Positions 13,919 through 40,193 of a DNA stretch of 64,000 nucleotides are shown in pieces (the stretch's first letter is position 1; every line of letters starts with the position of its first letter). Below the pieces are notes generated by a model. It had not been told where the DNA came from. It was given only the letters and a program-made list of their open reading frames with translations, and ran no database searches. The stretch covers positions 32,001-96,000 of the forward strand of contig JBHJHA010000036.1 in assembly GCA_050331235.1 (NCBI GenBank), given 5' to 3'. This DNA comes from Leptolyngbyaceae cyanobacterium (lineage in GTDB: Bacteria > Cyanobacteriota > Cyanobacteriia > Phormidesmidales > Phormidesmidaceae). The position numbers and the translations under genes were made by a program.

Positions 13919-13980
13919 TATTGGCTGTTCGTAGACACCAGTTGAGGGGCATCGTATATTAACTCAAAGATTTTTTGGCT

Positions 13981-15204
13981 ATGGTTTCTATTCAAGCGCC
14001 GTTTAGACTGGATTTGCGATCGCTCGCTGTATTTCGCATTGGTTTAGCAATAAGTTTCATTGTATTGGCCTGCATAGATGATGCTCCTGGCTTGGTAGAA
14101 ACTGCTGGCCTTTGGCAAAGATGGGACTCCCTATTCGTCATTTCAGAAACCCTGGAAAAGTTCGGTCAGTACTTACTGACACCCTTACTAAGCCTTGTCG
14201 GTATCGTGCTGCTCGTCGGCTATCGGGCTAAAGTTGTTTTGTCTATCGGGCTGTTCCTGAGTGGGCTGGCATACTTTTTGAATGTTGGCTCTTTTCCCGA
14301 GTTAGAGCCTCTGTTCTTGCCGATAGTGTTTTGGAGTTGGTTTTTGCCCTTGGGCGCAAACTTCTCTTTCGATAGTGCGATGAATACCGCTATCCCAAAA
14401 ACGTTTGAGATTGTTTCAAGTGCTACGATCGCTCTGGCGCTGCAACAATGTTTCAATTACTGGATGCCCAACTCATCGTTCCTGGCCTTTGGTACGGAGA
14501 GTACTAGCATTCATAGCCTGCTGCTGCTGATTTTTCTGTTAGCAGCATTGACTTTATTGATGCCCTTACAGTCGGCAACTTTACGTGCAGTTCTGATCAA
14601 TGGATTTGTGCTTTTACATTTGCTTGCATGGCTGTTTTGGGGGCAGCCTATTCAGGTCGCGTGGCTAGCGATCTCGATCTGGCTAGCATTTTTACCTACC
14701 ATCGTTTGGGAATTTTTGGAAAAACGATTGCAAACCTCACAAAGAGAGGGATTAGTCGTTTACTATGATGCCGACTGTGGCTTTTGTAAGAAAGTCGTGC
14801 ACGTTTTACGTGCTTTCCTCATCTTGCCGGGGACACCACTGTTGACAGCCCAGAGTGATGACTCAATTTGTGCTGATATGGAGGCCTATAACTCTTGGGT
14901 GGTGGTTGACTGGCAGCAACGCCGACACTTTAAATTCGAAGCGATCGCGTATATCTGCAGTCTGTCTCCTATTTTTCGCATTTTGGTTCCACTGTTGCGC
15001 TGGTCACCTGTGATGTCAGTCGGGACTCGCTTTTATGAGATGATCGCCAAAAATCGTAAGCAAGCTGGCCTGTTTACCCGTCCCCTCAAGTTCAACGCGT
15101 ATTCGACTCGCTTATCTACAACAGAAAATTTCATGGTGGCAGTTCTGGCTACCATTTACTTCCTCATTATTACTGCCAAAATTGTGAGCTATTTAGCTCT
15201 TTAA
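13981..15204 (+). CDS. HTTM-like/DCC1 (DUF393) thiol-disulfide oxidoreductase fusion
   Basis: N-terminal LDLRSLAVFRIGL and FWSWFLPLGANFSFD; C-terminal YYDADCGFC ... YEMIAKNR. Confidence 0.75.
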   Translation: MVSIQAPFRLDLRSLAVFRIGLAISFIVLACIDDAPGLVETAGLWQRWDSLFVISETLEKFGQYLLTPLLSLVGIVLLVGYRAKVVLSIGLFLSGLAYFLNVGSFPELEPLFLPIVFWSWFLPLGANFSFDSAMNTAIPKTFEIVSSATIALALQQCFNYWMPNSSFLAFGTESTSIHSLLLLIFLLAALTLLMPLQSATLRAVLINGFVLLHLLAWLFWGQPIQVAWLAISIWLAFLPTIVWEFLEKRLQTSQREGLVVYYDADCGFCKKVVHVLRAFLILPGTPLLTAQSDDSICADMEAYNSWVVVDWQQRRHFKFEAIAYICSLSPIFRILVPLLRWSPVMSVGTRFYEMIAKNRKQAGLFTRPLKFNAYSTRLSTTENFMVAVLATIYFLIITAKIVSYLAL

Positions 15205-15343
15205 GATTTGGCAACTATGGCAGTGTGTCTGATGGGGGCGATCTTTGGATTTCTTTAGCATTCCGGCATTTCTCAGCGGGCAACCTTCGAGAAATGGTCC
15301 CGATACCGGTAGAGTTTGAAACAATGAGCTGGATGCCTAGACT

Positions 15344-16630
15344 ATGGATGCATGCTACGACGTGAGTAATCGCGAGCGCATTGTAATTGTTGGTGCTGGG
15401 TTTGGGGGCTTCCAAGCGGCGCAATCTTTGGCTGGGGCAGCGGCAGATGTATTACTCATTGATCGCAACAACTACCACACGTTTATTCCGCTGCTATATC
15501 AGGTAGCTACGGGGCAGTTAGAGCCCAACTTGGTGGCTTACCCGATTCGGACAAAGCTGCGCCGGATGAAAAATGTTCGCTTTTTACAGGCGGATGTGCG
15601 GCACATTGATTTGGAGCATAAGGTTATCGGCGTTGGTGACGATCTGATTAGCTATGACTATTTGGTTATCGCGACCGGTGCTGAGTCTAGCTTTCATGGG
15701 GTGCCAGGGGCAGTGGAGCGAGCGTTTACCCTGCACAGCTTGCGAGACGCGATTGCCCTGCGTAACCGTTTTCTCTCCTGTTTTGAGCAAGCTGCAACTA
15801 CCCAAAATGATGAGGCACGGCGCCGGCTCATGACCTTCACCATTGTGGGTGGTGGGGCTACCGGGGTGGAGGTAGCAGGGGCGCTGGCCGAGTGGTTGCA
15901 GGGGGCGATCGCCCGAGATTTTCCCGAACTGCGAGGATGGGGACGCATTGTCTTAATCCAGTCCGGCTCGGGGCTGCTGCAAGAGTTTTCGCAGAAATTG
16001 GGGAACTATACGCACCGTCACCTGCAGCGGTTGGGGGTCGATGTTCGCTTAAATGTCAAAATTGCTGAGGTTTCAGCAACGACGGCTCAGCTCTCAGACG
16101 GGACTGTTATTCCCACCTCAACGGTAGTCTGGGCGGCGGGCATTCGGGCTGCAGAGCCGATGGTGGCCCAGCCCTTTGAGCAAGCGGCTAAGGGGAAAAT
16201 GGTGGTCAAGGAAACCCTGCAGCTAACGGAGCAGGCTAATGTGTATGCGATTGGCGACGTGGCGTACTTTGAAAAGTCTGGAAAGGTGCTGTCTGGGGTA
16301 GCCCCAGAAGCTCTCCAGCAGGGCGTTGCCGTGGCCCGCAACATTCGTCGGCAGCTCCAGGGCGAATTACCGCAACCGTTTAGCTATCTCAATAAAGGAC
16401 GGCTGGCAATTATCGGCGGCTATGGCGGCGTCGGTCGCGTAGCCGGCATCAACTTTGGCGGCTTTGTGGCTTGGTTAATGTGGTTGCTGGTACACGTAAC
16501 TTATTTGCCAGGGTATCGTAGCCGTCTTGTGGTGGTATTAACCTGGCTGCAAAACTACATTACGGGAGATCGCTCCCAGCGCCAACTCTCTGCACCGCCG
16601 CTGCCCGAATGCCCCGATTCACTACCTTGA
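15344..16630 (+). CDS. Type II NADH dehydrogenase family (NDH-2) flavoprotein
   Basis: IVGAGFGG, FIPLLYQVATG, IVGGGATGVEVAG, AIGD, A.QQG; start may be GTG 15362. Confidence 0.88.
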   Translation: MDACYDVSNRERIVIVGAGFGGFQAAQSLAGAAADVLLIDRNNYHTFIPLLYQVATGQLEPNLVAYPIRTKLRRMKNVRFLQADVRHIDLEHKVIGVGDDLISYDYLVIATGAESSFHGVPGAVERAFTLHSLRDAIALRNRFLSCFEQAATTQNDEARRRLMTFTIVGGGATGVEVAGALAEWLQGAIARDFPELRGWGRIVLIQSGSGLLQEFSQKLGNYTHRHLQRLGVDVRLNVKIAEVSATTAQLSDGTVIPTSTVVWAAGIRAAEPMVAQPFEQAAKGKMVVKETLQLTEQANVYAIGDVAYFEKSGKVLSGVAPEALQQGVAVARNIRRQLQGELPQPFSYLNKGRLAIIGGYGGVGRVAGINFGGFVAWLMWLLVHVTYLPGYRSRLVVVLTWLQNYITGDRSQRQLSAPPLPECPDSLP

Positions 16631-16642
16631 TCAAGAACGCCT

Positions 16643-17194
16643 ATGCCCCGTCCCCAAACTGGTTTAAAGACGAATGATATCGCTCTCGCCTATGTGCTGC
16701 TGCGAGTAGTGGTGGGCATCAACTACTTCAACCATGGATTTACCCGCATTGGCAATATTCCCGGCTTTGTCAACGCGATGGTGGGGGCCATGGATAGAGC
16801 CTGGATGCCTGAACCTTTGGTTCGTACTACTGCTGTTCTCGTCTCCCCCGTCGAGCTCGTCTTCGGCCTGTTCCTGCTGTTGGGGTTGTTTACTCGGATT
16901 TCTGTGATAGTGCTCTTTGTGCTGATGGCGATATTGATGTACGGCGTCACCATCGTGCAAAACTGGGATTCGGCCTCAAGCCAGTTAATCTACAACATTG
17001 TGCTGTTTATTCTCTTAGCGGCCCAGGGGTACAACCGTTGGTCGCTTGACGATGTGTTGTTTGGGCGCGATCGCTCACAAGTCGTTGACCCGTCTGGCAA
17101 TCCGACCGATGCTGTCAATTCCCGTAGACGTGGAGCACGATGGCATAAGCCAGGCCGGATTTCATACTTCTGGCCGAAGGGGCCTTCACATTAA
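16643..17194 (+). CDS. DoxX-family membrane protein
   Basis: LLRVVVGINYFNHGFTRI, ELVFGLFLLLGLFTR, WSLD. Confidence 0.8.
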   Translation: MPRPQTGLKTNDIALAYVLLRVVVGINYFNHGFTRIGNIPGFVNAMVGAMDRAWMPEPLVRTTAVLVSPVELVFGLFLLLGLFTRISVIVLFVLMAILMYGVTIVQNWDSASSQLIYNIVLFILLAAQGYNRWSLDDVLFGRDRSQVVDPSGNPTDAVNSRRRGARWHKPGRISYFWPKGPSH

Positions 17195-17321
17195 CTCAAT
17201 TAGGATAAATCAGTGTTGATTTCCGTTAGCGGATTGGTGAGGAAAGTCTGTGGATTTTTCTCCGCGAAGAGTGTTTCCTTGACGCTAGTCAGGCATTAGC
17301 AGTTGCACTGAGATATTACTG

Positions 17322-17723
17322 ATGAAATATTTGCCCCTGGTTGCCCGAATTGCCCTTGCTTTAGTCTTTCTCGTATCTGGTGTTAAACATTTGGTCGGTT
17401 TTTCAGGATTTGTCGACATGATCGGACAAAGCCTGCCCCTTGCGCCGTTACTGGCGATTGGTACGATTGCGTTTCAGATTTTGGGCGCGCTTTCTTTGAT
17501 TCTTGGCTACAAAGTTAATATCGGTGCCACACTGCTGTTGGTTTTTCTGATTCCAGCGACGCTGGTCTATCATAATCCGCTCATTGACGGTAGTCAGATG
17601 ACTGCATTCCTCAAAAATCTTGGACTAGTGGGTGGTCTTTTGTTGGTGATTTATGCGGGTGCAGGCGCAGCCAGTGTTGATCGCAGTCAAAGCCGGTCAG
17701 AGCACTATCCAGAAGTCAGTTAG
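17322..17723 (+). CDS. DoxX-family membrane protein
   Basis: ARIALALVFLVSG..H, FLKNLGLVGGLL, GAGAASVD. Confidence 0.85.
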   Translation: MKYLPLVARIALALVFLVSGVKHLVGFSGFVDMIGQSLPLAPLLAIGTIAFQILGALSLILGYKVNIGATLLLVFLIPATLVYHNPLIDGSQMTAFLKNLGLVGGLLLVIYAGAGAASVDRSQSRSEHYPEVS

Positions 17724-17760
17724 TGGATGGCAATCGCGGAATTTTGCATACTTAACCGCC

Positions 17761-17797
17761 AAATCCTACTTGTTGTTTCAGGTAGGATTTTTAATTT
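17761..17797 (+). terminator. Rho-independent terminator after the second DoxX gene
   Basis: AAATCCTACTTG-loop-CAGGTAGGATTT followed by a T-rich tract. Confidence 0.65.
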
Positions 17798-18067
17798 AAG
17801 GGCAACCACAGAAGATTCAGTCTGAGATTCCATGGGTGATGTATTGATAACCTGGCAGCGAGACCATCACTTTTGGAAAACTTAGTAAGAGTAGTCGCAC
17901 AATGCGTGGTGAATCCCGCATCCGTGGTCTACTAGCTACAAGCTTCGCCTATGAATAATTTGGCTGCGCGACACCTATCCTTCTCATGTCCTGGGTCAGG
18001 TTTTGCCCCGGCGAAATGTTGAGCCAAATCTTGCTTCCAAAACCGAATTTTCGGAAACTGACACCCC

Positions 18068-19543
18068 ATGGCTGACTCTAAACTCAAAAACTACATCAAC
18101 GGTGAATGGTGCGTCTCAAGCGCAAGCGATCGCTTGCCAGTGCACAATCCCGCGACCGCAGAGATCTTAGCGGAGGTGCCACTTTCTCCCGCGGCAGAGG
18201 TGGATGCGGCAACTGCTGCTGCTGTTGAGGCCTTTGCTGAATGGCGGCGGATGCCAGCGGTGGAGCGAGTGCAGTATCTGTTTAGACTCAAAGCCAGCTT
18301 AGAGCGTTACGCCGATGAGCTGGCTGAGTTAGTCACGTTAGAGTGTGGCAAAACTCTGAAAGAGTCTCGCGGTGAACTGCAGCGAGCCATTGAGAATGTT
18401 GAGGTTGCCTGCGGAATTCCCACGGCTATGCAGGGCGCTTTTTCTGAGGATATTGCCCGGGGCATTGACGAGTTTATGGTGCGTCAGCCTTTGGGAGTGG
18501 CGGCGGCGATCGCCCCGTTTAACTTTCCCGCCATGATTCCGTTTTGGTTCATGCCTTATGCCCTTGCCTGCGGCAATACCTATCTGGTGAAGCCCTCCGA
18601 AAAGGTGCCCCTGACTCTGCAAAAAGTGTTTGAACTGATTGACCAGGTTGGGTTTCCCGCTGGGGTGGTTAACTTGGTGAATGGGGCAAAGGAAACCGTC
18701 GACGCAATTCTCCAGCATCCTGATATCCGGGCCATTAGCTTTGTGGGTTCATCGCCGGTGGCTCGATATATCTATGCTCAGGCTGCAGCTCAGGGCAAGC
18801 GGGTGCAGTGTCAAGGCGGGGCCAAAAATCCGGTTGTCGTCTTGCCCGATGCTGATGTAGCCATGACGACTCGCATTGTAGCGGATAGCGCGTTTGGCTG
18901 TGCTGGCCAGCGATGTCTGGCTGCCTCTTTGGCGGTGACTGTGGGAGACGCTAAAGCTGAGTTTACCGACGCGATCGCGGCTGCCGCTGCTAGTCGGGTG
19001 ATCGGCAACGGATTAGATCCCGATGTGCAAATGGGGCCGGTGATCACTGCTCACAGCCGCGATCGCATTGCCTCCCTAATTCAAGCAGGGGTTGATGAAG
19101 GTGCTGAAGTGCTGGTTGACGGTCGTAGACCTGGCATTGCTGGCCTCGAACGGGGCAACTTCATCAAACCGAGTGTGCTGCAAGCGGTGTCACCTGCCAG
19201 CAAGATTGCTCAAACCGAGATTTTTGGCCCCGTTTTAGGCTTGTTGCACGTGGCCACCATTGATGAGGCGATCGCCCTTGTCAACCGGAGCTCCTGGGGT
19301 AATATGGCTTGTCTCTTTACCAGTAGCGGGGCCGCGGCGCGTAAGTTTCGCTACGAAGCTGAAGCCGGCAATATTGGCATCAATATCGGGGTGGCGGCAC
19401 CGATGGCGTTTTTCCCTTTCAGTGGCTGGAAAGAAAGCTTTTTTGGCGACTTGCACGGTCAAAGTCACCATGCGGTGGAATTCTTCACCCAAACAAAAGT
19501 CGTGATTGAACGCTGGCCTAAAGAATGGAGCCGACAGTTCTAA
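18068..19543 (+). CDS. mmsA: CoA-acylating methylmalonate/malonate-semialdehyde dehydrogenase
   Basis: [50 protein letters not shown]. Confidence 0.88.
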
Positions 19544-20409: not shown

Positions 20410-20868
20410 TTACACCTTCAACAGTACTTGGTCGCCTTCAATTTTGGCCTCATAGGTTTCAAGCGGATCGGTTGCGGGACCGGACGCAACTGAGCCATCT
20501 GGGTTGAAGCTGGAGCCGTGGCAGGGACAGGTAAATGCGCTTGCTTCCCAGTCGACACTGCAGCCCTGATGCGTGCATAAAGAATTGACAGCAATCAAAG
20601 CATCGGCGTTGTTGGGGTCGCGGGTGACAACAAATTGGGTTCCACGAAAGTCTTTATCAGAGAGGGTCCCCGACGCATCGAGTTCGGATACCGAGCCGAT
20701 AGCGACAAAGCCATCTTCGCGGGGGGCCGAATCTGCGGCGGCGGTATCATCGGTAGCTTCAGTATCGCTGGTTGAGGTCGGGTCTGACTGACAGGCGGCG
20801 ATCGCGACCGGCAAAGAAGTTGCCAGCACCCCCACGCCCATCCAGTTGACAAAGTCACGTCGATTCAT
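20410..20868 (-). CDS. Tat-exported Rieske [2Fe-2S] lipoprotein (PetC3-like)
   Basis: MNRRDF twin-arginine signal, IAAC lipobox, CTHQGC and CPCHGS boxes. Confidence 0.9.
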
Positions 20869-20901: not shown

Positions 20902-22596
20902 TTACAAAGTATCGGCCGATGTCAATATTTGGGCGCGTTTCCAACCGCCCCAGCGGCGGAGGGCAGTGACACCGACCAATAGCAAGTCGGCACTGACGAC
21001 CCCGGCAATTAACAGCTCCGAGCCGCCGGTGCCAAAGCCGTAACTATGTAGACCTGTGCCCAGTACAAAGTTGACGCCATACCAAGCCATCAGCACAGCA
21101 TTGAATGACACAATGCTAGCGACATGGATGCCGAAGTCACCGATCCAGCCGACTAAACGCCCATGCAGAGGGGCAAGGTAGCAAAGCAAGGCTATGAGCG
21201 CCCAGGTTTCCTTTGGATCCCAACCCCAAAAGCGACCCCAAGAAAAATGAGCCCAAATCCCCCCGAGGATAATGCCAGCGGTGAGTAATAGCACCCCGAC
21301 TTGCAAAACGCGGTAGTTGAGCTGGGATAGAACTTTGAGGCGCTGGCTAGCCTGGGGGGTAAACAGATAATTGAATAAAGCTACATGGCCGACTCCCAGT
21401 GCCAAAGCGAAACTCGCATAGCTGAGGGTGATGGTGGGAACGTGGATGCTGAGCCAAAAGTTATCTCGCAGTACAGGCACTAAGGGCGCAATGCTCGGAT
21501 CGAGTACGGCGGGCAAACTGTCAGCTAACACCAAACAAACCACGGAGAGGGGGGCGGCGGCCAATAGGTAAAACCGCTTGCGAGAAAAGACCTCCAGCAA
21601 CAGGGCGATCGCCGTAATACCAAAACCACACCACACCACTGATTCGTACATGTTGGTGACCGGTGGGCGATCGGCAATCTGCATCCGCAGGAAAAAGCCG
21701 TAGCTTTGGACTGCAATCCCCGCTGTAAATAATCCAATGGCTGACCAGTAAATGGGCCAGCGCTGCATCCACTGACTGGTCAACAGCACCACAAAGGCGA
21801 TCGCATAGAGCTGCCAAGCTTTAGCAAACGGATGGAAATGGTTGAAATGGACTTCGCGCGCCATGATGCCATCAGTGGGATAAACTCCAGGACTAAGCTG
21901 CTGAAGTCCTGACTTAAGATCGGTGGTAAAGGCGCTAATCATGGGCACATGGGTCAAACCGCCTTGCAACAGTGCCTGCTGCATCGTGGTAAAGGTGGCG
22001 AGGAGAGGCGCCACCGACTCGGGACTGTAGAGCTGGGTAGCTCCCTCCAAGCCGACCCACTTACCTTTGCGATCACTGGGGTGGGGCACAATTGGTAAGC
22101 CACGATCGCTGACTGACTGATACAGCAGATTGAGCCGGTCTTCAACAGTCAAAGCTTCTCGTTCATTGCGACTGAGATCGAGCTCATTCAGTTCCTTTTG
22201 ATGGGCGCTGCTGACAATGGTCCCGAGTTCTCGATTTGCCATCAATTCCTGAAAGCTGAAATGTTTACGCTCGAGGGACAGTCCAGCCACCTCCTTTAAG
22301 GGCCGATAGTTTACCAGCACAAAAGGTTCCTCATTCCAGTTGCGAGTGTTGAACCACATCGCGAGATAAGTGCTGAGCGCTCTTTCGCGGGTGCCATCGG
22401 TGTGTTTATAAGTGGTTGAACCGTTGATTTTGGCGACGGTTTCCTGGGCCACCGTATCCAAGGGCTTCTTCCGTCCGTCTAGCTGCACTGCGAGCGATCG
22501 CAGCGACGCTAATCCATCCGGTTGCCACTGACTGACGGGCAACACCAGTAGCAAGCAACCAAGAATTAAACCGATGAAAAACGTAATCAGTTTCAT
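20902..22596 (-). CDS. ccsA: System II cytochrome c synthase CcsA-like protein with long N-terminal extracytoplasmic domain
   Basis: WWD domain WAHFSWGRFWGWDPKETW, PVLRDNFWLSIH, GLHSYG, PVTNMYES; N-terminal GRKKPLDT. Confidence 0.9.
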   Translation of the reverse strand: MKLITFFIGLILGCLLLVLPVSQWQPDGLASLRSLAVQLDGRKKPLDTVAQETVAKINGSTTYKHTDGTRERALSTYLAMWFNTRNWNEEPFVLVNYRPLKEVAGLSLERKHFSFQELMANRELGTIVSSAHQKELNELDLSRNEREALTVEDRLNLLYQSVSDRGLPIVPHPSDRKGKWVGLEGATQLYSPESVAPLLATFTTMQQALLQGGLTHVPMISAFTTDLKSGLQQLSPGVYPTDGIMAREVHFNHFHPFAKAWQLYAIAFVVLLTSQWMQRWPIYWSAIGLFTAGIAVQSYGFFLRMQIADRPPVTNMYESVVWCGFGITAIALLLEVFSRKRFYLLAAAPLSVVCLVLADSLPAVLDPSIAPLVPVLRDNFWLSIHVPTITLSYASFALALGVGHVALFNYLFTPQASQRLKVLSQLNYRVLQVGVLLLTAGIILGGIWAHFSWGRFWGWDPKETWALIALLCYLAPLHGRLVGWIGDFGIHVASIVSFNAVLMAWYGVNFVLGTGLHSYGFGTGGSELLIAGVVSADLLLVGVTALRRWGGWKRAQILTSADTL

Positions 22597-22686
22597 AGGG
22601 CCAGCGATATTCAACAAAGATCAGGGCTATAAATTTGCGTGGGCGATCGCCCGGTGAACGGTTGTGGTGACAGTGCGATGCATTCG

Positions 22687-24498
22687 TTACTTGCCAAACA
22701 CCGCTAAAATTGGAATTGTTCCGCCAGTTTCCTCGGGCACCTCTTCCGCGACCGATGGGGCCTCGTCGGGGGAGGGCGATCGCCACCATTGGCGCCACCG
22801 CTTGAGCAAACTAGGTCCGTAAAACATGGTGGCGATACCCAGGACGACCAGCAACGAGCCGGTCCAAGTCAGGGCCGTGACCCACCAAGGTTCGCGCTTG
22901 AGCTGCAGAGTTGACTGCTGCAGGTCCCCCGGATTCCAAGACGCTTGGGCGAGCTTCCAACCCCGAAACCAAGTGGGGTGATTCATCCATACTGAGCGCT
23001 GTACTGCCGTATCCGTTTGCGGGTCAAACAGGGTCAAATCACTGGTCCACATGGCGACCGACTCGCTACCCTCGTTGCGCTCCACGATGAAATCGTTTAG
23101 CTTGACGTAAAACGGTAGCTCGAGCAGCTTGGGGCTAAACGCGGCAAAATATTGCCCAGCACTGGTTTCGAGGACTTTTGGTTCTCCCCAGGGGAGCCAA
23201 AAGTCCTCGCCCTCGGCGGTCGCTATGTGCAGCGCCGGAGTCCCTTCATTCGGGCGGGCATTGGCTGCAACCGGCATCACCGGTACAATCTGTCGCTGCA
23301 CCTGTGCGTGGTCAAGTTGTTCGACCAGCGTAATTTGAAAATCGGCCCAGCCCGGAATGACGGCTTCCCCGGGCTGGAATTTGCCCGTGCTGAAACCCTG
23401 GGCAGACGCGGCGGCGAAATACAGGTCCTGCCCAGGCGTTGTCACGATGCGAAAATAATCCGTAGGAGTCGCTACCGGCGGCTTATAGGCGATCGCTATC
23501 TCAATCCCGTCGTCCGAGCGTACCGGAGGCAGCCCTGGGTTGCCAAAGACAAACCATCGTTCCTGTTGACTTTCCTGGGAGACTAACAACTGCACCGCTG
23601 GATTGCGAAACTGCTCGGAGGCTGATGTGGGCTGCCCATCACCATTCAGGCGAAAATCGGGCCAGACAGCGGTGACTTCGACGTTGGTCCCCTCCTCCAA
23701 CGTGAGGGACTGTCCCTGGATTTGAGCGATATCAAAGTGGCGATCGCGCTGCTTAGCCGCAACGATGGCTATCTCGCCGAGGGGATGCTCAACCTCGGCG
23801 GGTGGACTCAACCACCGCTGCTGCTCAGCAGCATCGCCGACGGACACAATTTCAAAATGGGCAGGACCGATGTCTAACTGGCTATATCCTGCGGGAGCGA
23901 CGGCTAGCCAGCGGTCCAACGTTTGACCCATGCGATCGCTGTGCAGCTGAATCTTGACGGCTGGATTAGGAACCGTGCCCGTATTGTCAAACGCGACGGT
24001 CTTGATGGCGTTGTCGCTATAGCCCAGCAGCGAGAGCCCCGCAAATTGCTGAGGATATACTGACCCATCAGAACGCACAAAAATATCACTTTGCTGGCGG
24101 GTGCGATCGGGTGCAACGACTTCCAGCAGGTCACCCTGAATGCGAATTTGGGACCCTGGACCAGCATCCGTGCGTACGAGCAGCATCCCTTCCGTACTGA
24201 GATGAATTACAGCGGCTGAGCCAGCGATGATGATGACTAGGCCCCAGTGGGTTAAGGCAAAGCCCACCTTGCGGGGACCTTTCCAAGGCCAGCGGTTCAG
24301 GGTCGAGAGACCCAAATTAACTGCTAACAAAAACATCAGAGCGCCAAACCAAGCGCTCTTATAAATCTCTCGTTGAACGGTGAGTGGACCCACATTTGAT
24401 TCATAAAAAGTAGCACCAATCAAGATGACAGAAATCACTGTCAAGAGTGGTACTGCTAATCGAATAGAGCCTAAATATTGGATGAGTCGAGACTTCAT
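22687..24498 (-). CDS. ResB/CcsB-like cytochrome c biogenesis protein
   Basis: LGSIRLAV, IYKSAWF..L..LLAVNL, GFALTHWG (conserved His), MNHP..FRGWKL.QASW, C-terminal TM. Confidence 0.85.
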   Translation of the reverse strand: MKSRLIQYLGSIRLAVPLLTVISVILIGATFYESNVGPLTVQREIYKSAWFGALMFLLAVNLGLSTLNRWPWKGPRKVGFALTHWGLVIIIAGSAAVIHLSTEGMLLVRTDAGPGSQIRIQGDLLEVVAPDRTRQQSDIFVRSDGSVYPQQFAGLSLLGYSDNAIKTVAFDNTGTVPNPAVKIQLHSDRMGQTLDRWLAVAPAGYSQLDIGPAHFEIVSVGDAAEQQRWLSPPAEVEHPLGEIAIVAAKQRDRHFDIAQIQGQSLTLEEGTNVEVTAVWPDFRLNGDGQPTSASEQFRNPAVQLLVSQESQQERWFVFGNPGLPPVRSDDGIEIAIAYKPPVATPTDYFRIVTTPGQDLYFAAASAQGFSTGKFQPGEAVIPGWADFQITLVEQLDHAQVQRQIVPVMPVAANARPNEGTPALHIATAEGEDFWLPWGEPKVLETSAGQYFAAFSPKLLELPFYVKLNDFIVERNEGSESVAMWTSDLTLFDPQTDTAVQRSVWMNHPTWFRGWKLAQASWNPGDLQQSTLQLKREPWWVTALTWTGSLLVVLGIATMFYGPSLLKRWRQWWRSPSPDEAPSVAEEVPEETGGTIPILAVFGK

Positions 24499-24560
24499 AT
24501 TTAGAAGAGATACCGCAGAAACTCGTATTCCAAATCATTCATTCGCTTTCCAATAGTTTT

Positions 24561-24628
24561 TGTAAAAAGCATCACAAAAATAAATTAATTGGTGCGGAAA
24601 GCGATCGTGACCCATGCGAAAACCGCAT
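24561..24628 (-). promoter_or_regulatory. Leftward promoter: NtcA-like box plus LysR (NtcB-like) palindrome
   Basis: Minus strand GTG-N8-TAC at 24575-24562; perfect ATGCG-N5-CGCAT at 24614-24628; centres 52.5 bp apart. The -10 at the N22 position is only AATGAT. Confidence 0.55.
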
Positions 24629-24752
24629 CGATCATCCTAAAAATATATCTAAGACGCCTTTAAAATTCCTCCTTCAGAAGGATTTTTGAGTCGTCTTTAG
24701 AGATCGAAAGCTAACTCGATAACCGGATATGTACTGAATAAACGTATCAAAA

Positions 24753-24847
24753 ATGCATTTATTGCATCGAATCAATGCGTTAAGCGTATGGTTTTTATGG
24801 GAATTGTGCTTGGTTTTACAAAACAAGAAATATACCTTCTCTATTGT
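24753..24847 (+). promoter_or_regulatory. Rightward promoter: LysR (NtcB-like) palindromes, NtcA-like box and -10
   Basis: ATGCA-N5-TGCAT (24753-67), second ATGCG-N5-CGTAT (24775-89), GTG-N8-TAC (24806-19), then N22, then TATTGT (TAN3T, 24842-47). Confidence 0.7.
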
Positions 24848-25128
24848 CAAGTCCATGGTTCTGTTTTTGGTTTGCGAAAGAAAATCACGCTTTCGCTCTG
24901 AATATTTGAAGTCAGAGTCCGCGTCTGGCTTTCGAAATTTAGACGGTTTTGCAGTTGAATTTTTTGTTGATTGAGTATTGCCGTTCAGAGATTGCTTCAG
25001 GGTTGATTGGTTTTTCGGCTTCTGGCGCTGGAATTTGATTGTTCTGTTGGGTGCGATTTTTGGCGGTCTAGCTACTCAATGACTGTGTTTTTCTTTGGGA
25101 TATAGAGTTTCTTGGGAGACAGGGATTA

Positions 25129-26150
25129 ATGGTTTCAAGTACGAATGACGCGTCTGAGGAGAAAGGATTACAGGTTAGCTATTGGAGCGTAGCTTTGAGA
25201 AGGTGACTCCCCGAGCCGATGATTTTGTAGCGAGCTTTTACAGCAATCTATTCGCTGATTATCCAGACGCGAAGCCGCTGTTTGCCCACACCAATATGGC
25301 TAAGCAGCAGAAAATGCTGCTGGAATCTCTTGTCTTTGTTGTCGAGAATTTGCGCCAGCCCGAGGCTTTGTCGGGGGCTCTTCAGGGCCTCGGTGCCCGG
25401 CATATGAAATATGGGGCGCTGCCTGAGCATTATCCGTTGGTGGGCAACTCGCTGCTCAAAACGTTTAGCCAGTACTTGGGAAATGATTGGACTCCAGAAA
25501 CTCAGCAGGCTTGGGCTGAGGCTTATGGAGCGATTACGATGCTCATGTTGGAGGGGGCCGATTACGCCCCAGAGCAAGTCCAGTTGGAGCCGCCGGCTGA
25601 GGTGGATGAAGCCACAGGACTCAAGATTCAGCTGCTGGAAGAGAGCTTTGGTAAGGTGGCTCCCCAGGCTGATGCGTTTGTCGGCAGTTTTTACGACAAC
25701 TTATTCACGGACTACCCAGCCGCTAAGCCTTTATTTACCCATACCAATATGGGCAAGCAGAAAAAGATGCTGCTGGAGTCTTTGGTGTTTGTTATCGAAA
25801 ACCTGCGCCAGCCCGGGAAACTGACCGAGGCTTTGAAGGGGCTCGGCACTCGCCATGTGCAGTACGGCGCTTTGCCCGATCACTATCCGCTGGTGGGCAA
25901 CTCGTTGCTCAAGACCTTTGAGCAGTACCTCGGTAGTGACTGGACTGATGAAGTGAAGCAGGCCTGGGTGGATGCCTATGGTCTTATCACAACGGTCATG
26001 TTGGAAGGCGCTGATTATGATCGAGCCTCTGTCCAGCTACCCTCTACAGCTACGCTCGAAGCGCCAGAAAGCAACATCAATATGGGGGCAGCAGCCGGTA
26101 TTGCTGGCGGCGGCCTGATTGCCTTGATTGCGCTGATCTTGCTGGTCTAA
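25129..26150 (+). CDS. Tandem two-domain globin (flavohemoglobin/Vgb-type globin fold) with C-terminal TM anchor; apparent 1-bp frameshift at about 25177
   Basis: Two near-identical domains (FY..LF.DYP.AKPLF.HTNM.KQ.KML; LG.RH..YGALP.HYPLVG) and a hydrophobic tail. ATG 25129 with RBS is out of frame with the body, which is open only from TTG 25182. Confidence 0.85.
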
Positions 26151-26177
26151 GTCGAGGATGCACACGGAGCAAGATTG

Positions 26178-26822
26178 ATGGCTTTGAGAAGCCGAATACT
26201 GAGGGGGCGATCGCTCCTGACTCTGAGAACGGCAATCGTCCTCGTTTGCATTATCCTGGTGGGCTGGTTTGGTGCGGCGTTTGCCCTGGACAACAAGCAG
26301 GCGTTCTTGCCAGGGGAGACCTCAGTCGGTCACTACCTGTTTGAAACGTCCTGCAGTTCTTGTCACGAAGGGTTTAAGCCCGTGAGTAACGACACCTGCA
26401 TGCGCTGTCATGAGGCGGAGATGGCTGAGGATAAGCACGGTGCGGCTAAGTTCCGGGATCCTCGGTGGGCGGGGGAGCTGCAAAAGATTGAAGCGCTGAC
26501 TTGCACCACTTGCCATAACGAGCATGTCCACATGTTTGGACGGGGGGTCCATTTGCAGCCCGATCTATGTATGAACTGCCACCAAGGCATCATTGAGGGC
26601 GATCTCAAGAGTCATGACGGCTTTGCCGCCGATGGGTGTTGGACGGCGGGCTGCCACAACTACCACGATCACCGCTCAATTTCGACTGGGTTTTTGATTG
26701 AAAATGTTGACCAACCGCCCATGCTGCCGGTGCAGCTGTTACCTGATCGAATCGTTTTAACCCAGGTGTATAGGGCACCGAGTCCTGATCTAAGTGACGC
26801 CTTTTTGCAAGGGGGGGCATGA
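26178..26822 (+). CDS. Pentaheme cytochrome c (4 CXXCH + 1 CX4CH), N-terminal TM/signal
   Basis: CSSCH, CMRCH, CTTCH, CMNCH, CWTAGCH. Confidence 0.88.
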   Translation: MALRSRILRGRSLLTLRTAIVLVCIILVGWFGAAFALDNKQAFLPGETSVGHYLFETSCSSCHEGFKPVSNDTCMRCHEAEMAEDKHGAAKFRDPRWAGELQKIEALTCTTCHNEHVHMFGRGVHLQPDLCMNCHQGIIEGDLKSHDGFAADGCWTAGCHNYHDHRSISTGFLIENVDQPPMLPVQLLPDRIVLTQVYRAPSPDLSDAFLQGGA

Positions 26823-27631
26823 TGTTGCAGCGACTCTGGGGTCGAGCGATCGCCCTGATGGTATTGCCGCTATTGCTATTGGGCAATGGGGGCCTGCCAG
26901 CCCAGGCTAACCCTGTTGATCGCGCTCAAGTTGAGACCGTTACTCAGCTTTGGCAAACCAGTGCCCATGCCCTGAATGAAATTAACTGCTCCAGTTGTCA
27001 TGAATCATCCGCGACTCAGGAATTTGTGGCCCGCCCGGGCGTCGAAAGTTGTCAATCCTGTCATCAGCAAGACGTCGATACCTTCTTACTCGGTAAGCAC
27101 GGCATTCGGCTGCTGGAGGGTGATACGCCCCTCACGCCCGCGATGGCTCGTCTGCCGATGCAGCCCGACGTGATGAACCAGCCCATGACCTGCAATAGCT
27201 GTCACGACGTTCACTCGGTCAATACCATGCAGGCGGCGGTCGATTCTTGCTTGGGGTGCCACAGCGACTCGCACTCGTTGAACTACGGTGATTCCCGCCA
27301 TGCGGACCTGTTTGCCGCTGATCGCGACTTGCCGCGCCCCTCGGCGACCTCGGTGAGCTGTGCTACCTGCCACCTGCCGCGTCATCAGACTGGGACGGGC
27401 GATAGCGCAGTTACGCTGATCAATCACAACAATACCTACACGCTGCTCCCCCGCGATCGCATGGTCAAGGACGTGTGCATGAATTGCCACGGTATGGAGT
27501 ACAGCTACAACAGCATTTTTGACGATGACCTCGTGGAGGCAAATTTTAACGCCCCACCGACCCTTGCCCTAAAAACTTTTGACCTTGTCCGGGCGTTTGA
27601 AGAGCGTCGCACTGATCAGGGTGAGAGTTAG
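26819..27631 (+). CDS. Hexaheme cytochrome c, exported
   Basis: Signal peptide ending AQA; CSSCH, CQSCH, CNSCH, CLGCH, CATCH, CMNCH; ATGA overlap with the upstream gene. Confidence 0.9.
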   Translation: MMLQRLWGRAIALMVLPLLLLGNGGLPAQANPVDRAQVETVTQLWQTSAHALNEINCSSCHESSATQEFVARPGVESCQSCHQQDVDTFLLGKHGIRLLEGDTPLTPAMARLPMQPDVMNQPMTCNSCHDVHSVNTMQAAVDSCLGCHSDSHSLNYGDSRHADLFAADRDLPRPSATSVSCATCHLPRHQTGTGDSAVTLINHNNTYTLLPRDRMVKDVCMNCHGMEYSYNSIFDDDLVEANFNAPPTLALKTFDLVRAFEERRTDQGES

Positions 27632-27776
27632 GGCGATCGTCAAATTCAACGTTCGCATCGACGAACAATTGCGCACATCGCGATCGCATCACCTTCGCAC
27701 AATTTCACGTTTCACGTTTGGCAGTTTCTGATTCTAAACAGAGGAGAAAAAGGATATGACACTTGTAGGAAGATGT

Positions 27777-28409
27777 ATGAATACCCTGCGAACTCGCACG
27801 GTCGCTTTCATCGCGATCATCATGGCGGTTGCCGTTACTGCGATCTCTTGTAGCAGCAGCGGCACAACTGCAACCGCCGCCCCCGGCATCTCGCCCGAGT
27901 TGGTGGCTGATTACATTCACACGGTTATGGAGGCTGACCGCACTGCCTATACCAAGCACGTGGTCAACCGCGCCACCATGCTAGAAGGCAAAGAAAAGGC
28001 CGACGGCGTAGTTCCGGTTGAAGCAACTGAGGCTTGGCAGCAAGGTGAGGGCATTCCCCTGCCCGCCCAAATGTTCCGTCTGGGCTCTGAGATTGCCAAC
28101 GAAAAAGGTTATTTCACTTACAACCTCATCTCACCTTGGTATATCAATGACAGCCACGCCCCTAAAGGCGAGTTTGAGGAAACCGCGGTCGAAACCATGA
28201 TCGAAACTGGTGAACCCGTCAAAGACTATCAAGAAATTGGCGGGCAGCAGTACTTCTCGGCGATGTACCCCGACAAGGCGGTGGCTGAGGCTTGTGTATC
28301 TTGCCACAACACCCATCCCATTCACCTGGAGCGCTATCCCGATAAGCAGTTCGAGATGGACGAGGTGATGGGCGGCATCGTCATCAACATTCCCCTAGAG
28401 GGAGCCTAA
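27777..28409 (+). CDS. DUF3365 (Tll0287-like) monoheme c lipoprotein
   Basis: Lipobox AISC, PLPAQMFR, PDKAVAEACVSCHN, GGIVINIPL; alternative start at 27756. Confidence 0.85.
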   Translation: MNTLRTRTVAFIAIIMAVAVTAISCSSSGTTATAAPGISPELVADYIHTVMEADRTAYTKHVVNRATMLEGKEKADGVVPVEATEAWQQGEGIPLPAQMFRLGSEIANEKGYFTYNLISPWYINDSHAPKGEFEETAVETMIETGEPVKDYQEIGGQQYFSAMYPDKAVAEACVSCHNTHPIHLERYPDKQFEMDEVMGGIVINIPLEGA

Positions 28410-28647: not shown

Positions 28648-29376
28648 ATGAGTAGATCGCCTCGACCTCAGCATGTAGATCCCCCGTCTAATCAGCACTC
28701 CATCGAGTCACATGAGCCGCGGGTGGCCGATGCGGTGGCGGCGATCGCCCCCCAAAGGCAAAGGGCCTTTAAGCCGCGGGGTATCAAACCCAGCTTTAAG
28801 GTCCTGATCGGCCTGACATTGCTGACAGCGCTGCTGCTGACCCCATTTGTCGTGAGTGATCTATATCTCGATGCGCTTAGGGCGCGATCGTTTGATTTGC
28901 ATCAGTTTATCCGGGGGGAACTGTACAAGCAGTCGACCGGCTACGGAGCTTTGGTCTTGGTGTTAGTTGAGATGCTACTGACGGTGCGCAAGCGCGGTGG
29001 TGGCTGGCTGGCTCGGATCAAACTGCCAGGCTCAATGTTGATATGGCGGAGTACCCACATTTTTCTGGGCGTAGGGTTGCTGGGATTAGTGCTGGTGCAT
29101 ACTTTGGGCGCTAACGGCCTGAACTTTAACGCCATCTTTCTCTGGGTATTTTTTGCGACGACTTTGACGGCGTTGGTCGGCGTGGTCGCTGAAACTGGCA
29201 TTTTGGAATCCACCCAGAGCTACTTTGGCAAACTGCCGGGGTCAAACGTGGCTTTAACGAAAGGGCCACTCATTCGCGGGTTGAGAGCCATTTGGCTGAC
29301 TAGCCATATCTTTTTTGTGGCTGTCTTTGGTGTGATGCTGATTTTTCACATTGCGCTGGCTTACTACTATCAGTGA
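28648..29376 (+). CDS. Integral membrane protein, putative di-heme b (ferric-reductase-like TM) subunit
   Basis: About 5 TMs; two His pairs each 14 residues apart (STHIFLG...LVH; SHIFF...IFH). Confidence 0.7.
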   Translation: MSRSPRPQHVDPPSNQHSIESHEPRVADAVAAIAPQRQRAFKPRGIKPSFKVLIGLTLLTALLLTPFVVSDLYLDALRARSFDLHQFIRGELYKQSTGYGALVLVLVEMLLTVRKRGGGWLARIKLPGSMLIWRSTHIFLGVGLLGLVLVHTLGANGLNFNAIFLWVFFATTLTALVGVVAETGILESTQSYFGKLPGSNVALTKGPLIRGLRAIWLTSHIFFVAVFGVMLIFHIALAYYYQ

Positions 29377-29464
29377 AGACGCTGACTTATTTAGCACGCT
29401 GGTTGGGTAAACGGGTGGAGTCTTGGGTGTCGCATTTTGTGTTGGTGTATTACGGATAGAGGCT

Positions 29465-29995
29465 ATGACGGATCAAATTCGTTTGTTGGAAACCAGTTTT
29501 GCCCAGGTCCGACCTAAGGCGATGGCCTTCTCAGATTGTTTTCACCGCCATTTATTTCAAAACCATCCAGACATCGAGCCCATGTTCAGCGACGTGAGCC
29601 TCGAATTGCAAGAAAAAAAGCTGATCGCTTCCCTTGCGCTCATTGTTGAAAATTTGCATAACCCGGCGGCTTTAGCCCATGCACTTCAAGCCTTGGGGGC
29701 CTATCACGTGACCAAGGGAACCCTGGCAGAGCATTACCCCTATGTGGGGCAGGCCCTGATGCAGGCCTTTGCCGAATTTTTGGGGGATGAATGGACGCCT
29801 GCTGTCGCTGAGGCGTGGCAGGCGGCCTATCGCACGATTTGCGATTTGATGCTGGAGGGGGCGGAGCATCCCCAAGCGTATCTAGAGGGTGAGCTGACCT
29901 TTTATGAATGGCTAGATCTATATGGCGAGTCTAGTCCGACGTTACACAAGCTTGTGGAGTCGACCACCCACTTTAAATATGGCGCTAAAGGGTAG
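29465..29995 (+). CDS. Single-domain globin with C-terminal extension
   Basis: LLETSFAQV, LQEKKLIASL, LGAYH, EHYPYVGQAL, WTP.VAEAW..AY. Confidence 0.85.
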   Translation: MTDQIRLLETSFAQVRPKAMAFSDCFHRHLFQNHPDIEPMFSDVSLELQEKKLIASLALIVENLHNPAALAHALQALGAYHVTKGTLAEHYPYVGQALMQAFAEFLGDEWTPAVAEAWQAAYRTICDLMLEGAEHPQAYLEGELTFYEWLDLYGESSPTLHKLVESTTHFKYGAKG

Positions 29996-30051
29996 CGGCG
30001 TTGATGCAGACCTTTTGACCAAGCGATTTGATATTGATGGAGTCGGTAGTG

Positions 30052-30528
30052 ATGACGGTGAATCGAGGTTCTGACAACCCAGCGATGAATCGGGGCAGCC
30101 GGTGGGCGATCGTGATAATTGCCACCTTTGCGATCGCCGCATTTTGGCTAACTCGTCCGGTAGCGGATGCCCATTTTTCTCCGGTATCTGGCCTAATGTC
30201 GTTGAAAGCCAGTGCTCAACAGGCGATGCCCTATCAGGTCGCAATGCACAATGGCAAGCCGACGCTGATTGAGTTTTACGCTGACTGGTGTACCACCTGC
30301 CAGGGGATGGCCCCTACCTTGGCGTCTATCCACGAGCAATTGGGAGGGTCTGTCAACTGGGTAATGCTGGATATTGATGATCCCCAGTGGCGCGACCAGA
30401 TACAGCAGTTTCACGTTACCGGTGTGCCCCATCTGGTTCTGCAAACGGGGCAGGGGGCGATCGCTGACAGTTTTGTGGGTAAGGTACCCGGGCCCATTCT
30501 CTTACGGAGTATTGAGCAAATGTTCTAG
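30052..30528 (+). CDS. Membrane-anchored thioredoxin (TxlA/HCF164/CcsX-like)
   Basis: TM segment then EFYADWCTTC and GVPH; start uncertain (30037/30052/30085). Confidence 0.85.
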   Translation: MTVNRGSDNPAMNRGSRWAIVIIATFAIAAFWLTRPVADAHFSPVSGLMSLKASAQQAMPYQVAMHNGKPTLIEFYADWCTTCQGMAPTLASIHEQLGGSVNWVMLDIDDPQWRDQIQQFHVTGVPHLVLQTGQGAIADSFVGKVPGPILLRSIEQMF

Positions 30529-31034: not shown

Positions 31035-31916
31035 ATGTCAATCCGATTTCAACTTTGGGGTTGGGGCTGGGCCCTCGCGGGCACGTTGCTAATCACCGCA
31101 CCCGCCTGTTCTGGCGATGAGGCGATCGCCCCGCAGTCAACGCCGATGGTCCTCTCTAGTACTGAGGATGACGCCTTTCAAGCCTTACAGTCAGCCGATG
31201 TAGTTTACTTAGGAGAACGGCACGATAGCCCCCTTGACCACGCAGCTCAACTAGAGATCATTAAGGCCCTTTATGCCGCCGATCCAGAGATTGCGATCGC
31301 CCTAGAGATGTTTCAGCGGCCCTTTCAACCGGTGATTGATCGGTATCTAGCGGGAGATATTTCCGAGGCAGCCCTAGTCAAGCAGACTGAATACCAAGAA
31401 CGTTGGGGCTTTCCCTGGGAGTTTTACGCGCCGGTCGTGCGGTTTGCCCAGGCCCAAGACCTGCCTGTGCTCGCACTGAATGCCCCCGCGGAAATCACCC
31501 GACAAATTGCCCGCGAAGGGCTTACTAGCTTATCCGGCAATGACTTTCGCTATATTCCACCGGTTGAGGCGATCGACACCACTAACCCAGACTACCGCGA
31601 CTTTGTCACCGCTGCGTTTGGTGCTCACGGGGCCCACGGAGATTTTAATTTCGACAACTTTTTTGCGGCGCAGGTGACCTGGGACGAAACGATGGCCATG
31701 ACCATTGCTGAGTTTAAGGCCGATAATCCCGATACTCAGGTCGTCGTATTGGCGGGTAATGGACACGTGATCTACGGCTGGGGCATTCCTGACCGGGTAC
31801 AGCGCCGACTGGGCGAGGAGCTGATACAGCAAATTGTGGTGCTGAATCCGAGTCCTGAGGTGGAGCAGGCAAAGGGGGCGATCGCCGATCTCTTTTGGTA
31901 CAGCGAAGGGCCATAG
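31035..31916 (+). CDS. ChaN-family (heme-binding, iron-regulated) lipoprotein
   Basis: Lipobox-like PAC, VVYLGERHD, ALEMF, AQVTWDETMA, VLAGNGH..YG.GIP.RV.RR. Confidence 0.88.
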   Translation: MSIRFQLWGWGWALAGTLLITAPACSGDEAIAPQSTPMVLSSTEDDAFQALQSADVVYLGERHDSPLDHAAQLEIIKALYAADPEIAIALEMFQRPFQPVIDRYLAGDISEAALVKQTEYQERWGFPWEFYAPVVRFAQAQDLPVLALNAPAEITRQIAREGLTSLSGNDFRYIPPVEAIDTTNPDYRDFVTAAFGAHGAHGDFNFDNFFAAQVTWDETMAMTIAEFKADNPDTQVVVLAGNGHVIYGWGIPDRVQRRLGEELIQQIVVLNPSPEVEQAKGAIADLFWYSEGP

Positions 31917-31950
31917 GCTTCGCAACGCCCAGATTGACAACCTGGTGTTG

Positions 31951-32874
31951 CTAGGCCAAATTCAGCGCCCCTTGGCGGCGTAACGCCTGCTTTTGTTCGG
32001 GTGATAATCCAGAGGCACCAGTGAACAATGCTCCCCGCACCTTGGCCTGAGCAAACTGTGTGCCGTCGAGTTGGGCGTTTTCTAAATTGGCCTCCCGGAG
32101 ATCAGCACCCCTTAGGTTGGCCCGACTTAAGTTGGCTGATGCGAAATAAGCGCCATAGAGCGATGCTCCTCGCAGATCTGCCTCCATTAATATTGCATTC
32201 CAAAGATTGCTACAGTCGAGCTGGGTCATTTGCAGAATCGCTCCGGTGAGATCGCTTTCCGACAGATCGCAGTTCAGCATGTCGGCTTCGGATAAGTTGG
32301 CCCCCATGAGCAGGGCACTGGAAAGCCGCGATTGAGTCAAGGTGGCGCCCGCTAAAGAGACGCCCACCAGCGTAGCTTGATGCCACGACGATTGGGAGAG
32401 GTTGGCGGTGGCAAAGCTCGATTGACTAAAATTGGCTGCATCGCTTTGGGCCCCCACGAGGCTAGCCTGGTCAAACCGCGATCGAGGAGCCTCAATAGCG
32501 CGCAGATCAGCCTGATCAAAGCAGGACTGGCGCGCATTGACTTGTTCCATTTGACTGCCGTACATCATGACACCGGCAGCGATCGCCTGTTGCAAGTTGG
32601 CCCGGTGCAACTGAGCCTGAGTTAAGTTGGCTTGCCGTAAGCAAGCGGCTTCTAACCGACACTCAGACAAATCAGCGAGGATCAGCGTCGCCTGAGAAAA
32701 GTCAGCAGCCCAACAGGAAGCACGATGTAGCTTAGCTCGGCGCAAGTAAGCCCCTGAAAAGTTGCCCTCATTCAAACAATTTTGACTGAGATCCAAATTG
32801 CTTAATTCAGCCCTCGCAAGGGATTGCCCTGCCTGTAGTTTGGCGAGCACCTGTGAGATGGCTAACTGTGCCAT
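31951..32874 (-). CDS. Pentapeptide-repeat protein
   Basis: Continuous A(N/D)L(S/R)X repeats; GAGGAG RBS before ATG 32874. Confidence 0.9.
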   Translation of the reverse strand: MAQLAISQVLAKLQAGQSLARAELSNLDLSQNCLNEGNFSGAYLRRAKLHRASCWAADFSQATLILADLSECRLEAACLRQANLTQAQLHRANLQQAIAAGVMMYGSQMEQVNARQSCFDQADLRAIEAPRSRFDQASLVGAQSDAANFSQSSFATANLSQSSWHQATLVGVSLAGATLTQSRLSSALLMGANLSEADMLNCDLSESDLTGAILQMTQLDCSNLWNAILMEADLRGASLYGAYFASANLSRANLRGADLREANLENAQLDGTQFAQAKVRGALFTGASGLSPEQKQALRRQGALNLA

Positions 32875-32915
32875 GGCAACCTCCTCTAAACACTTCAATA
32901 TCATAAAAGGTTCCC

Positions 32916-39958: not shown

Positions 39959-40193
39959 GACAGCTCGACCAAAAAGGGAATGGTGGGTGCCGTAGCCAGG
40001 CGCTCTCCCACGGGGGCAACGGCTCAATCACCATACCGTGCTCGCCAGTGATTATTCATCCTTAACTGTGGCTATAGGGGGTAAAGGCCAGTACAAGGTT
40101 GCATCTTTGCCCACCCTAAAACCGTTTAGCCCGCTTCAGTGCCTGCCCGGAGTCGCCAATTACTCTCTCAGCAGTCATAAAAAACAGCGGAAT

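Follow-up and report, generated by a model that had tools for sequence, protein, structure and literature searches.

Two outward-facing promoters of probable NtcA–NtcB type between the arms of a globin and multi-haem cytochrome island in a Leptolyngbyaceae cyanobacterium

The window, a 64,000-nucleotide stretch of the genome of a Leptolyngbyaceae cyanobacterium, contains an island of haem-protein and haem-attachment genes arranged in two divergent arms around an intergenic spacer (24499-25181, 38.5% GC). The rightward arm (+ strand) starts with a gene for a globin of two domains that is anchored in the membrane by its C-terminus (25129..26150). Its orthologue-matching start codon is ATG 25129, but the frame shifts about 50 nt on, near 25175-25181, and the long frame begins at TTG 25182 in this assembly; the frameshift could be genuine or could come from the assembly. 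Next are genes for a five-haem cytochrome c with one CX4CH site (26175..26822) and a six-haem cytochrome c (26819..27631), which correspond to the N- and C-terminal halves of an eleven-haem protein. The arm continues with a Tll0287-like haem-c protein (27756..28409), a membrane protein (28648..29376) with the invariant histidine pairs H137/H151 and H220/H234, each 14 residues apart, from which a di-haem b cytochrome is predicted, an extra single-domain globin that only a part of the relatives have in this position (29423..29995) and, as last conserved gene, a membrane-anchored thioredoxin (30028..30528). The closest likeness of the island globins is to the globin domain of NO-inducible flavohaemoprotein. 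A fourth globin domain of the genome lies within a 326-aa frame on C34 (~38980-39960, - strand), the C-terminal half of which carries a CPGC motif and appears thioredoxin-like by eye; this gene was not among the high-scoring promoter matches. Genes for a ChaN-type haem-binding protein and a pentapeptide-repeat protein (31035-32904) recur beside the island in many relatives.

The six-haem protein has all six motifs in 53/53 orthologues, and among its 65 long relatives, 64 match the five-haem profile too and 51 carry eleven motifs. Its best solved relative is 6h5l, a HAO-like protein of the anammox bacterium Kuenenia, with which it aligns distantly over five haem motifs (profile E 1.7e-8). Hydroxylamine oxidoreductases (HAO) are characterized by an eight-haem core with a catalytic haem. 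Unlike 6h5l, the six-haem protein is one half of an eleven-haem chain, and for one haem of 6h5l, presumably the catalytic one, it shows no corresponding motif. No catalytic site could be demonstrated by this alignment. The AlphaFold model of the six-haem protein had a pLDDT of 50, and a wide fold search with it returned signal-helix matches only, none at Z 5 or more. The protein had no match in plasmids.

The leftward arm (- strand) encodes a ResB-like cytochrome c maturation protein (22687..24498, PF05140), a CcsA/CcsB-type cytochrome c assembly protein (20902..22617) and a Rieske 2Fe-2S protein whose N-terminus carries a twin-arginine motif (20410..20868). Further left (13975-19543) lie genes for a DCC1-like protein, an NDH-2-like protein, two DoxX proteins and an aldehyde dehydrogenase, which are mostly not conserved there in relatives.

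An earlier note on this DNA, made from the sequence alone, had claimed that mirror-image NtcA- and NtcB-like promoters drive both arms. All motifs that it named, rightward and leftward, were found again at their positions, and the distance between palindrome centre and box centre is 52.5 bp in both directions. On the globin side, the distal palindrome ATGCA-N5-TGCAT (24753-24767, + strand, centre 24760) is followed 22 bp downstream by a second copy (24775-24789, +). Together they form a tandem NtcB-type box (24753..24789) of two ATGC-N7-GCAT palindromes, 7 bp apart, with 15/16 consensus bases. An NtcA-type box GTG-N8-TAC (24806..24819, +, centre 24812.5) lies 16 bp past the NtcB-type box, and the -10 element TATTGT (24842..24847, +) another 22 bp further. 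This places the predicted start site near 24854, with the NtcA-type box centred at a predicted -41.5 and the NtcB-type box at -101 to -65. In total, 23/25 bases match the published nirA-type template, with a 16-bp spacer. The leader after this promoter measures 110-529 nt in 56 spacers of the island; an alignment of 13 contained no conserved block, and Rfam gave a sub-threshold match only.

On the resB side (- strand), the distal palindrome ATGCG-N5-CGCAT (24614-24628, centre 24621) is perfect (8/8). The proximal half-box (24592-24606), which the earlier note did not list, is degenerate, and both halves make up an NtcB-type box at 24592..24628. The NtcA-type box GTG-N8-TAC (24562..24575, centre 24568.5) again follows after 16 bp; on both sides this sequence agrees with GTA-N8-TAC in 5/6 bases. 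A non-canonical -10 candidate, AATGAT (24534..24539), likewise absent from the earlier list, is located 22 bp past the NtcA-type box and agrees with TAN3T in the A and the final T but not in the first T. The leftward start site is predicted near 24527. The two NtcB boxes of the spacer are 124 bp apart. Midway between them lies an imperfect inverted repeat (24651..24697, 21-nt arms, 76%), where a third factor could bind. With their flanks (24558-24577 and 24804-24823), the two NtcA boxes constitute a 20-nt inverted repeat (80%), a likeness that exceeds what the consensus needs.

The layout can be compared with the nirA promoter of Anabaena sp. PCC 7120. Passages of a preprint describe an NtcB box ATGC-N7-GCAT-N7-ATGC-N7-GCAT that occupies -100 to -64 and is separated by 15 bp from a GTA-N8-TAC box at -48 to -35 (bioRxiv 10.1101/2022.10.10.511513). 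According to the same passages, NtcB alone is inactive and raises NtcA-dependent transcription, and a 5-bp change of the spacer abolishes this co-activation. The island promoters resemble this description in their tandem palindromes 7 bp apart followed by an NtcA box, 22 bp and a -10 element, as well as in element order and helical phase. They differ from it in the GTG half-site, in a spacer of 16 instead of 15 bp, in being two promoters placed back to back, in the missing TAN3T of the left promoter and in their targets, which are haem-protein and haem-attachment genes, not genes for nitrate uptake or reduction. As summarized in parts of PMC3898017, class II NtcA promoters have GTN-N8-TAC centred at -41.5 and TAN3T 22 bp downstream, and the strongest Anabaena NtcA ChIP peak is a GTG-N8-TAC site that is bound in vivo. 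Most class II NtcA promoters, as far as covered there, have no NtcB box, whereas the tandem LysR box of the island is as conserved as its NtcA box.

Within the 4.8 Mb genome neither single element is rare: ATGC[AG]-N5-[CT]GCAT occurs 15 times, compared with 7-24 times for the other spacer lengths from 0 to 11, and one strand alone has 1016 copies of GT[AG]-N8-TAC. The strict composite pattern of palindrome, 34-42 bp and NtcA-type box gave three matches in 4.8 Mb, which are both island promoters and a site at C20:50623, upstream of three genes that were taken for nirA, nrtP and narB on the basis of their translations. Compared with this nirA promoter, the island promoters show the same layout; the nirA promoter has GTA and 15 bp, the island boxes have GTG variants and 16 bp. 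A matrix of 55 island sites from other species ranked nirA highest genome-wide (46.3), followed by the right promoter (43.5), the left promoter (21.3, only 2.5 above the next site) and that next site (18.8). With a nirA matrix without the -10 element, the left promoter scored 19.1, below an unrelated site on C92 at 22.0. The genome encodes both NtcB (C15, E 2e-119 to 8h3v) and NtcA (C52, E 6e-123).

Conservation was assessed in orthologous spacers. A search with the ResB-like protein gave 69 loci, from the best 80 of 108 stretches, in which the island gene order is strongly conserved. Nine loci that were truncated or without the opposite arm were dropped, and the set consisted of 61 divergent spacers including that of the window, many of the loci being closely related to each other. 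On the globin side, 57/61 spacers score at least 19/25 on the published template, with shuffle maxima of 15-18 among those listed. The best spacer between NtcB and NtcA boxes is 15 bp (26 spacers), 16 bp (31), 17 bp (3) or 14 bp (1), and the mean score is highest at 15-16 bp among spacer lengths of 8-24. The NtcA column reads GTA in 87%, and TAN3T occurs at N22 in 51/56 orthologous sites, although the search template itself partly selects for both. A blastn search with the spacer of the window gave zero matches to the other 60; grouping by blastn likeness resulted in 35 mutually unalignable groups, and the globin-side promoter is present in 31 of them.

The island matrix scores at least 21 in 29/29 scorable nirA upstream regions (30 fetched, one too short), where the spacer is 15 bp in 24/29 and 16 bp in 5/29. 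In the reverse direction, a matrix from 27 distinct nirA sites exceeded the 99th percentile of a background of 2866 windows in 59/61 globin-side and 32/61 resB-side spacers, a test that is not fully independent since it was the island matrix that had served to find these nirA sites. The two top-scoring background windows are further copies of the same promoter type. Extra full NtcB+NtcA+(-10) promoters were seen at two other loci, one within the island, ahead of the gene for the membrane His protein (L013 near 5767, - strand), and one beyond the pentapeptide gene, pointing away (L029 near 3055, - strand).

The gene context connects the motif with the island and with nitrate genes without recourse to motif scores. 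In 21/29 relatives, a HEAT-repeat gene is divergent from nirA, followed by ntcB in 16; we take this to be the nirB arrangement and call the gene nirB-like. In 2/29 relatives, the globin operon replaces nirA opposite the nirB-like gene (L151 8413-16348 in G437 and L152 8357-15901 in G436), with resB-ccsA not adjacent, and at L030 nirA adjoins the island. In the genome of the window, the 376-aa HEAT-repeat gene is detached from the nirA locus and preceded at about 120 bp by a perfect tandem NtcB box (C31:30003-30039; locus L120, 1004-1040) that has no NtcA box 15-17 bp further on. Among six relatives with a similarly detached gene, three also carry an NtcB-only box. The island marker was found in 67/140 family genomes and in 3/301 of a phylum-wide sample, and ntcB in 66/67 island-bearing family genomes. 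Leptolyngbya sp. PCC 7375 and Halomicronema sp. CCY15110 are examples of cultured strains with the island. Nothing can be learned from co-occurrence of the island with nitrate genes, since 134/140 family genomes have nirA and 134/140 have ntcB. In the 94%-complete assembly of G403, island and promoter are kept and nirA, narB and ntcB were not found.

Taken as two outward nirA-type promoters, each activated by NtcA and NtcB, the spacer would likely let both arms rise with nitrate assimilation, and this is the reading we favour with good confidence. It is unlikely that only the rightward promoter is truly of this type, the left boxes being decaying or minor and resB-ccsA-Rieske standing mainly under another promoter or under NtcA alone. 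Such an interpretation would fit the low score of the left site in both matrices, its poor proximal half-box and its lack of TAN3T, as well as the strict test, in which a box had to be distinct from the globin-side one to be counted and which failed in 39/61 resB-side spacers. These include all 18 members of a cluster with Leptolyngbya PCC 7375, Adonisia and Leptothoe (0/18 pass), some of which retain an NtcA-like box and half a palindrome. However, 22/61 resB-side spacers do pass compared with 0/305 shuffles, spread over 17/35 spacer groups, with spacers of 15-17 bp and an NtcA box that mostly ends 54-82 bp before resB. The hexamer at N22 reads nAnnnT in 14/22 of them, and three close relatives (L003, L009 and L011) have perfect GTA-N8-TAC boxes with strong tandem NtcB boxes. 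Conservation held for the globin side (57/61) and only in part for the resB side. The mirror image described earlier stands for the window and its nearest relatives but not as a fixed trait of the island: it is lineage-dependent, as the resB side passes in only 22/61 and never with a canonical -10 (TAnnnT in 0/22), and the resB-side promoter is likely the weaker of the two.

A CRP-type paralogue could instead bind at -41.5, chiefly in the left promoter, while NtcB or a different LysR protein acts upstream; the island would then answer to cAMP or another signal. The earlier note had raised this alternative on account of TGTAA-N6-TCACA at 24561. Compared with the CRP consensus TGTGA-N6-TCACA, the left box with its flanks matches 9/10 and the right box 8/10, and the genome does encode other CRP-family proteins, including one on C47 with a RETVTR helix and two that share the RVTVTR helix of NtcA. 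Yet a match of at least 8/10 to this consensus occurs in only 2/56 globin-side and 1/22 resB-side sites; the globin-side column is mostly GTA, several orthologous sites being perfect GTA-N8-TAC, and the same layout is found at nirA, a known NtcA target. Since the orthologous sites do not keep the CRP match, NtcA is the better reading and control by a CRP-type factor in its place is very improbable, although there may be an extra CRP input in this strain. Chance matches in an AT-rich spacer would explain why elements that are common singly occur here, but hardly why the composite is rare, its spacing fixed and its presence conserved between unalignable spacers and absent from shuffle controls. 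Chance is already contradicted for the right promoter by the island-matrix and nirA-matrix results, and we give it almost no weight.

With activation by NtcA and NtcB as the preferred reading, each promoter would be served by one NtcA dimer and one NtcB tetramer, each promoter having its own tetramer because of the distance between the two NtcB boxes. Judging from the Anabaena structure, 2-oxoglutarate-bound NtcA at -41.5 would bend the DNA, and this bend would bring NtcB, positioned at about -101 to -65, into contact with RNA polymerase. The haem-attachment arm is likely induced more weakly than the globin and multi-haem arm. Because the layout is shared with the nirA promoter, the island is likely switched on along with nitrate use, and induction upon ammonium withdrawal or growth on nitrate is a safe prediction. 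NtcB has been described as a context-specific co-activator of the nitrate-assimilation operon, and its dependence on nitrite varies by strain. A secondary source terms it nitrite-responsive (PMC5318462), as does the title of a reference in PMC10945777, and the passages on in vitro co-activation contain no mention of nitrite (bioRxiv 10.1101/2022.10.10.511513). The idea that NirP1 is under NtcB control found no support in PMC10907346, where NtcB is mentioned 0 times.

The earlier note further held that the island is wired like a nitrate-assimilation operon and that this is independent support for an N-oxide function. The wiring holds well for the globin side, given the nirA layout, the fit to the NtcA–NtcB complex, the presence of both regulators and the conservation of the promoter, and less well for the resB side. 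The support extends to co-regulation with nitrate assimilation and not to the substrate: what the promoters indicate is a link between the island and nitrate assimilation, and they do not point to any particular N-oxide chemistry. The right arm may build a haem chain across the membrane from globin, predicted di-haem b, Tll0287-like protein and eleven c-haems, to which the left arm would supply haem attachment and the Rieske protein. Its most likely job would then be the removal of NO or of excess nitrite from nitrate reduction. Handling of NO or nitrite is the function we prefer, at roughly even odds, in view of the likeness to HAO-like proteins and of a precedent in Bradyrhizobium, where a globin-containing NO-detoxification unit is co-expressed with the assimilatory nitrate reductase, as described in parts of PMC4724949. 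The island shares with that narK-bjgb-flp-nasC operon a globin co-regulated with assimilatory nitrate reduction. The operon is, according to the same parts of PMC4724949, under NasS-NasT control with a soluble flavoprotein partner, whereas the island has NtcA/NtcB-type promoters, a predicted membrane haem chain and its own cytochrome c maturation genes. The island might also be regulated as proposed and serve as an electron sink or as a nitrate- or nitrite-linked redox or oxygen sensor. This is compatible with the promoter claim and has an appreciable but minor probability; the missing motif opposite one 6h5l haem, the lack of an identified catalytic site and the Tll0287-like protein, which could be sensory, speak for it, and the flavohaemoprotein-like globins and the Bradyrhizobium precedent speak against it. 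A NO synthase was not found in the genome (95.5% complete), which contains two COX1-family matches.

The promoter class is already known and it is the target genes that are unexpected. The literature searched, which leaves most subscription journals outside its coverage, contained neither an account of the island or of its promoter nor any paper combining NtcB, globin and cytochrome c. The cluster goes unmentioned in the accessible parts of a nitrogen-source transcriptome of Synechococcus PCC 7002 (PMC3323872), a strain not established as island-bearing. A supplement noted in part of PMC5062996 lists 16 extra predicted NtcB targets, which could bear on novelty. Tentatively, the NtcB regulon of these benthic and mat cyanobacteria might have three members, namely nirA-nrtP-narB, the nirB-like gene and a haem chain that spans the membrane, is encoded by ten genes and comes with a maturation system of its own. 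Such a chain would be a dedicated and hitherto unrecognised branch of nitrate assimilation, in which photosynthetic electrons cross the membrane to reduce nitrite or NO and tethered globins recycle NO to nitrate, a proposal that we consider doubtful. If the promoters act as proposed, a globin and eleven-haem membrane island present in 67 of the 140 family genomes would be a conserved second NtcB target and widen the regulon. A shift from ammonium to nitrate would then be the first defined growth condition in which to assay this unstudied redox system, and the finding could bear on the turnover of nitrite and NO in microbial mats.
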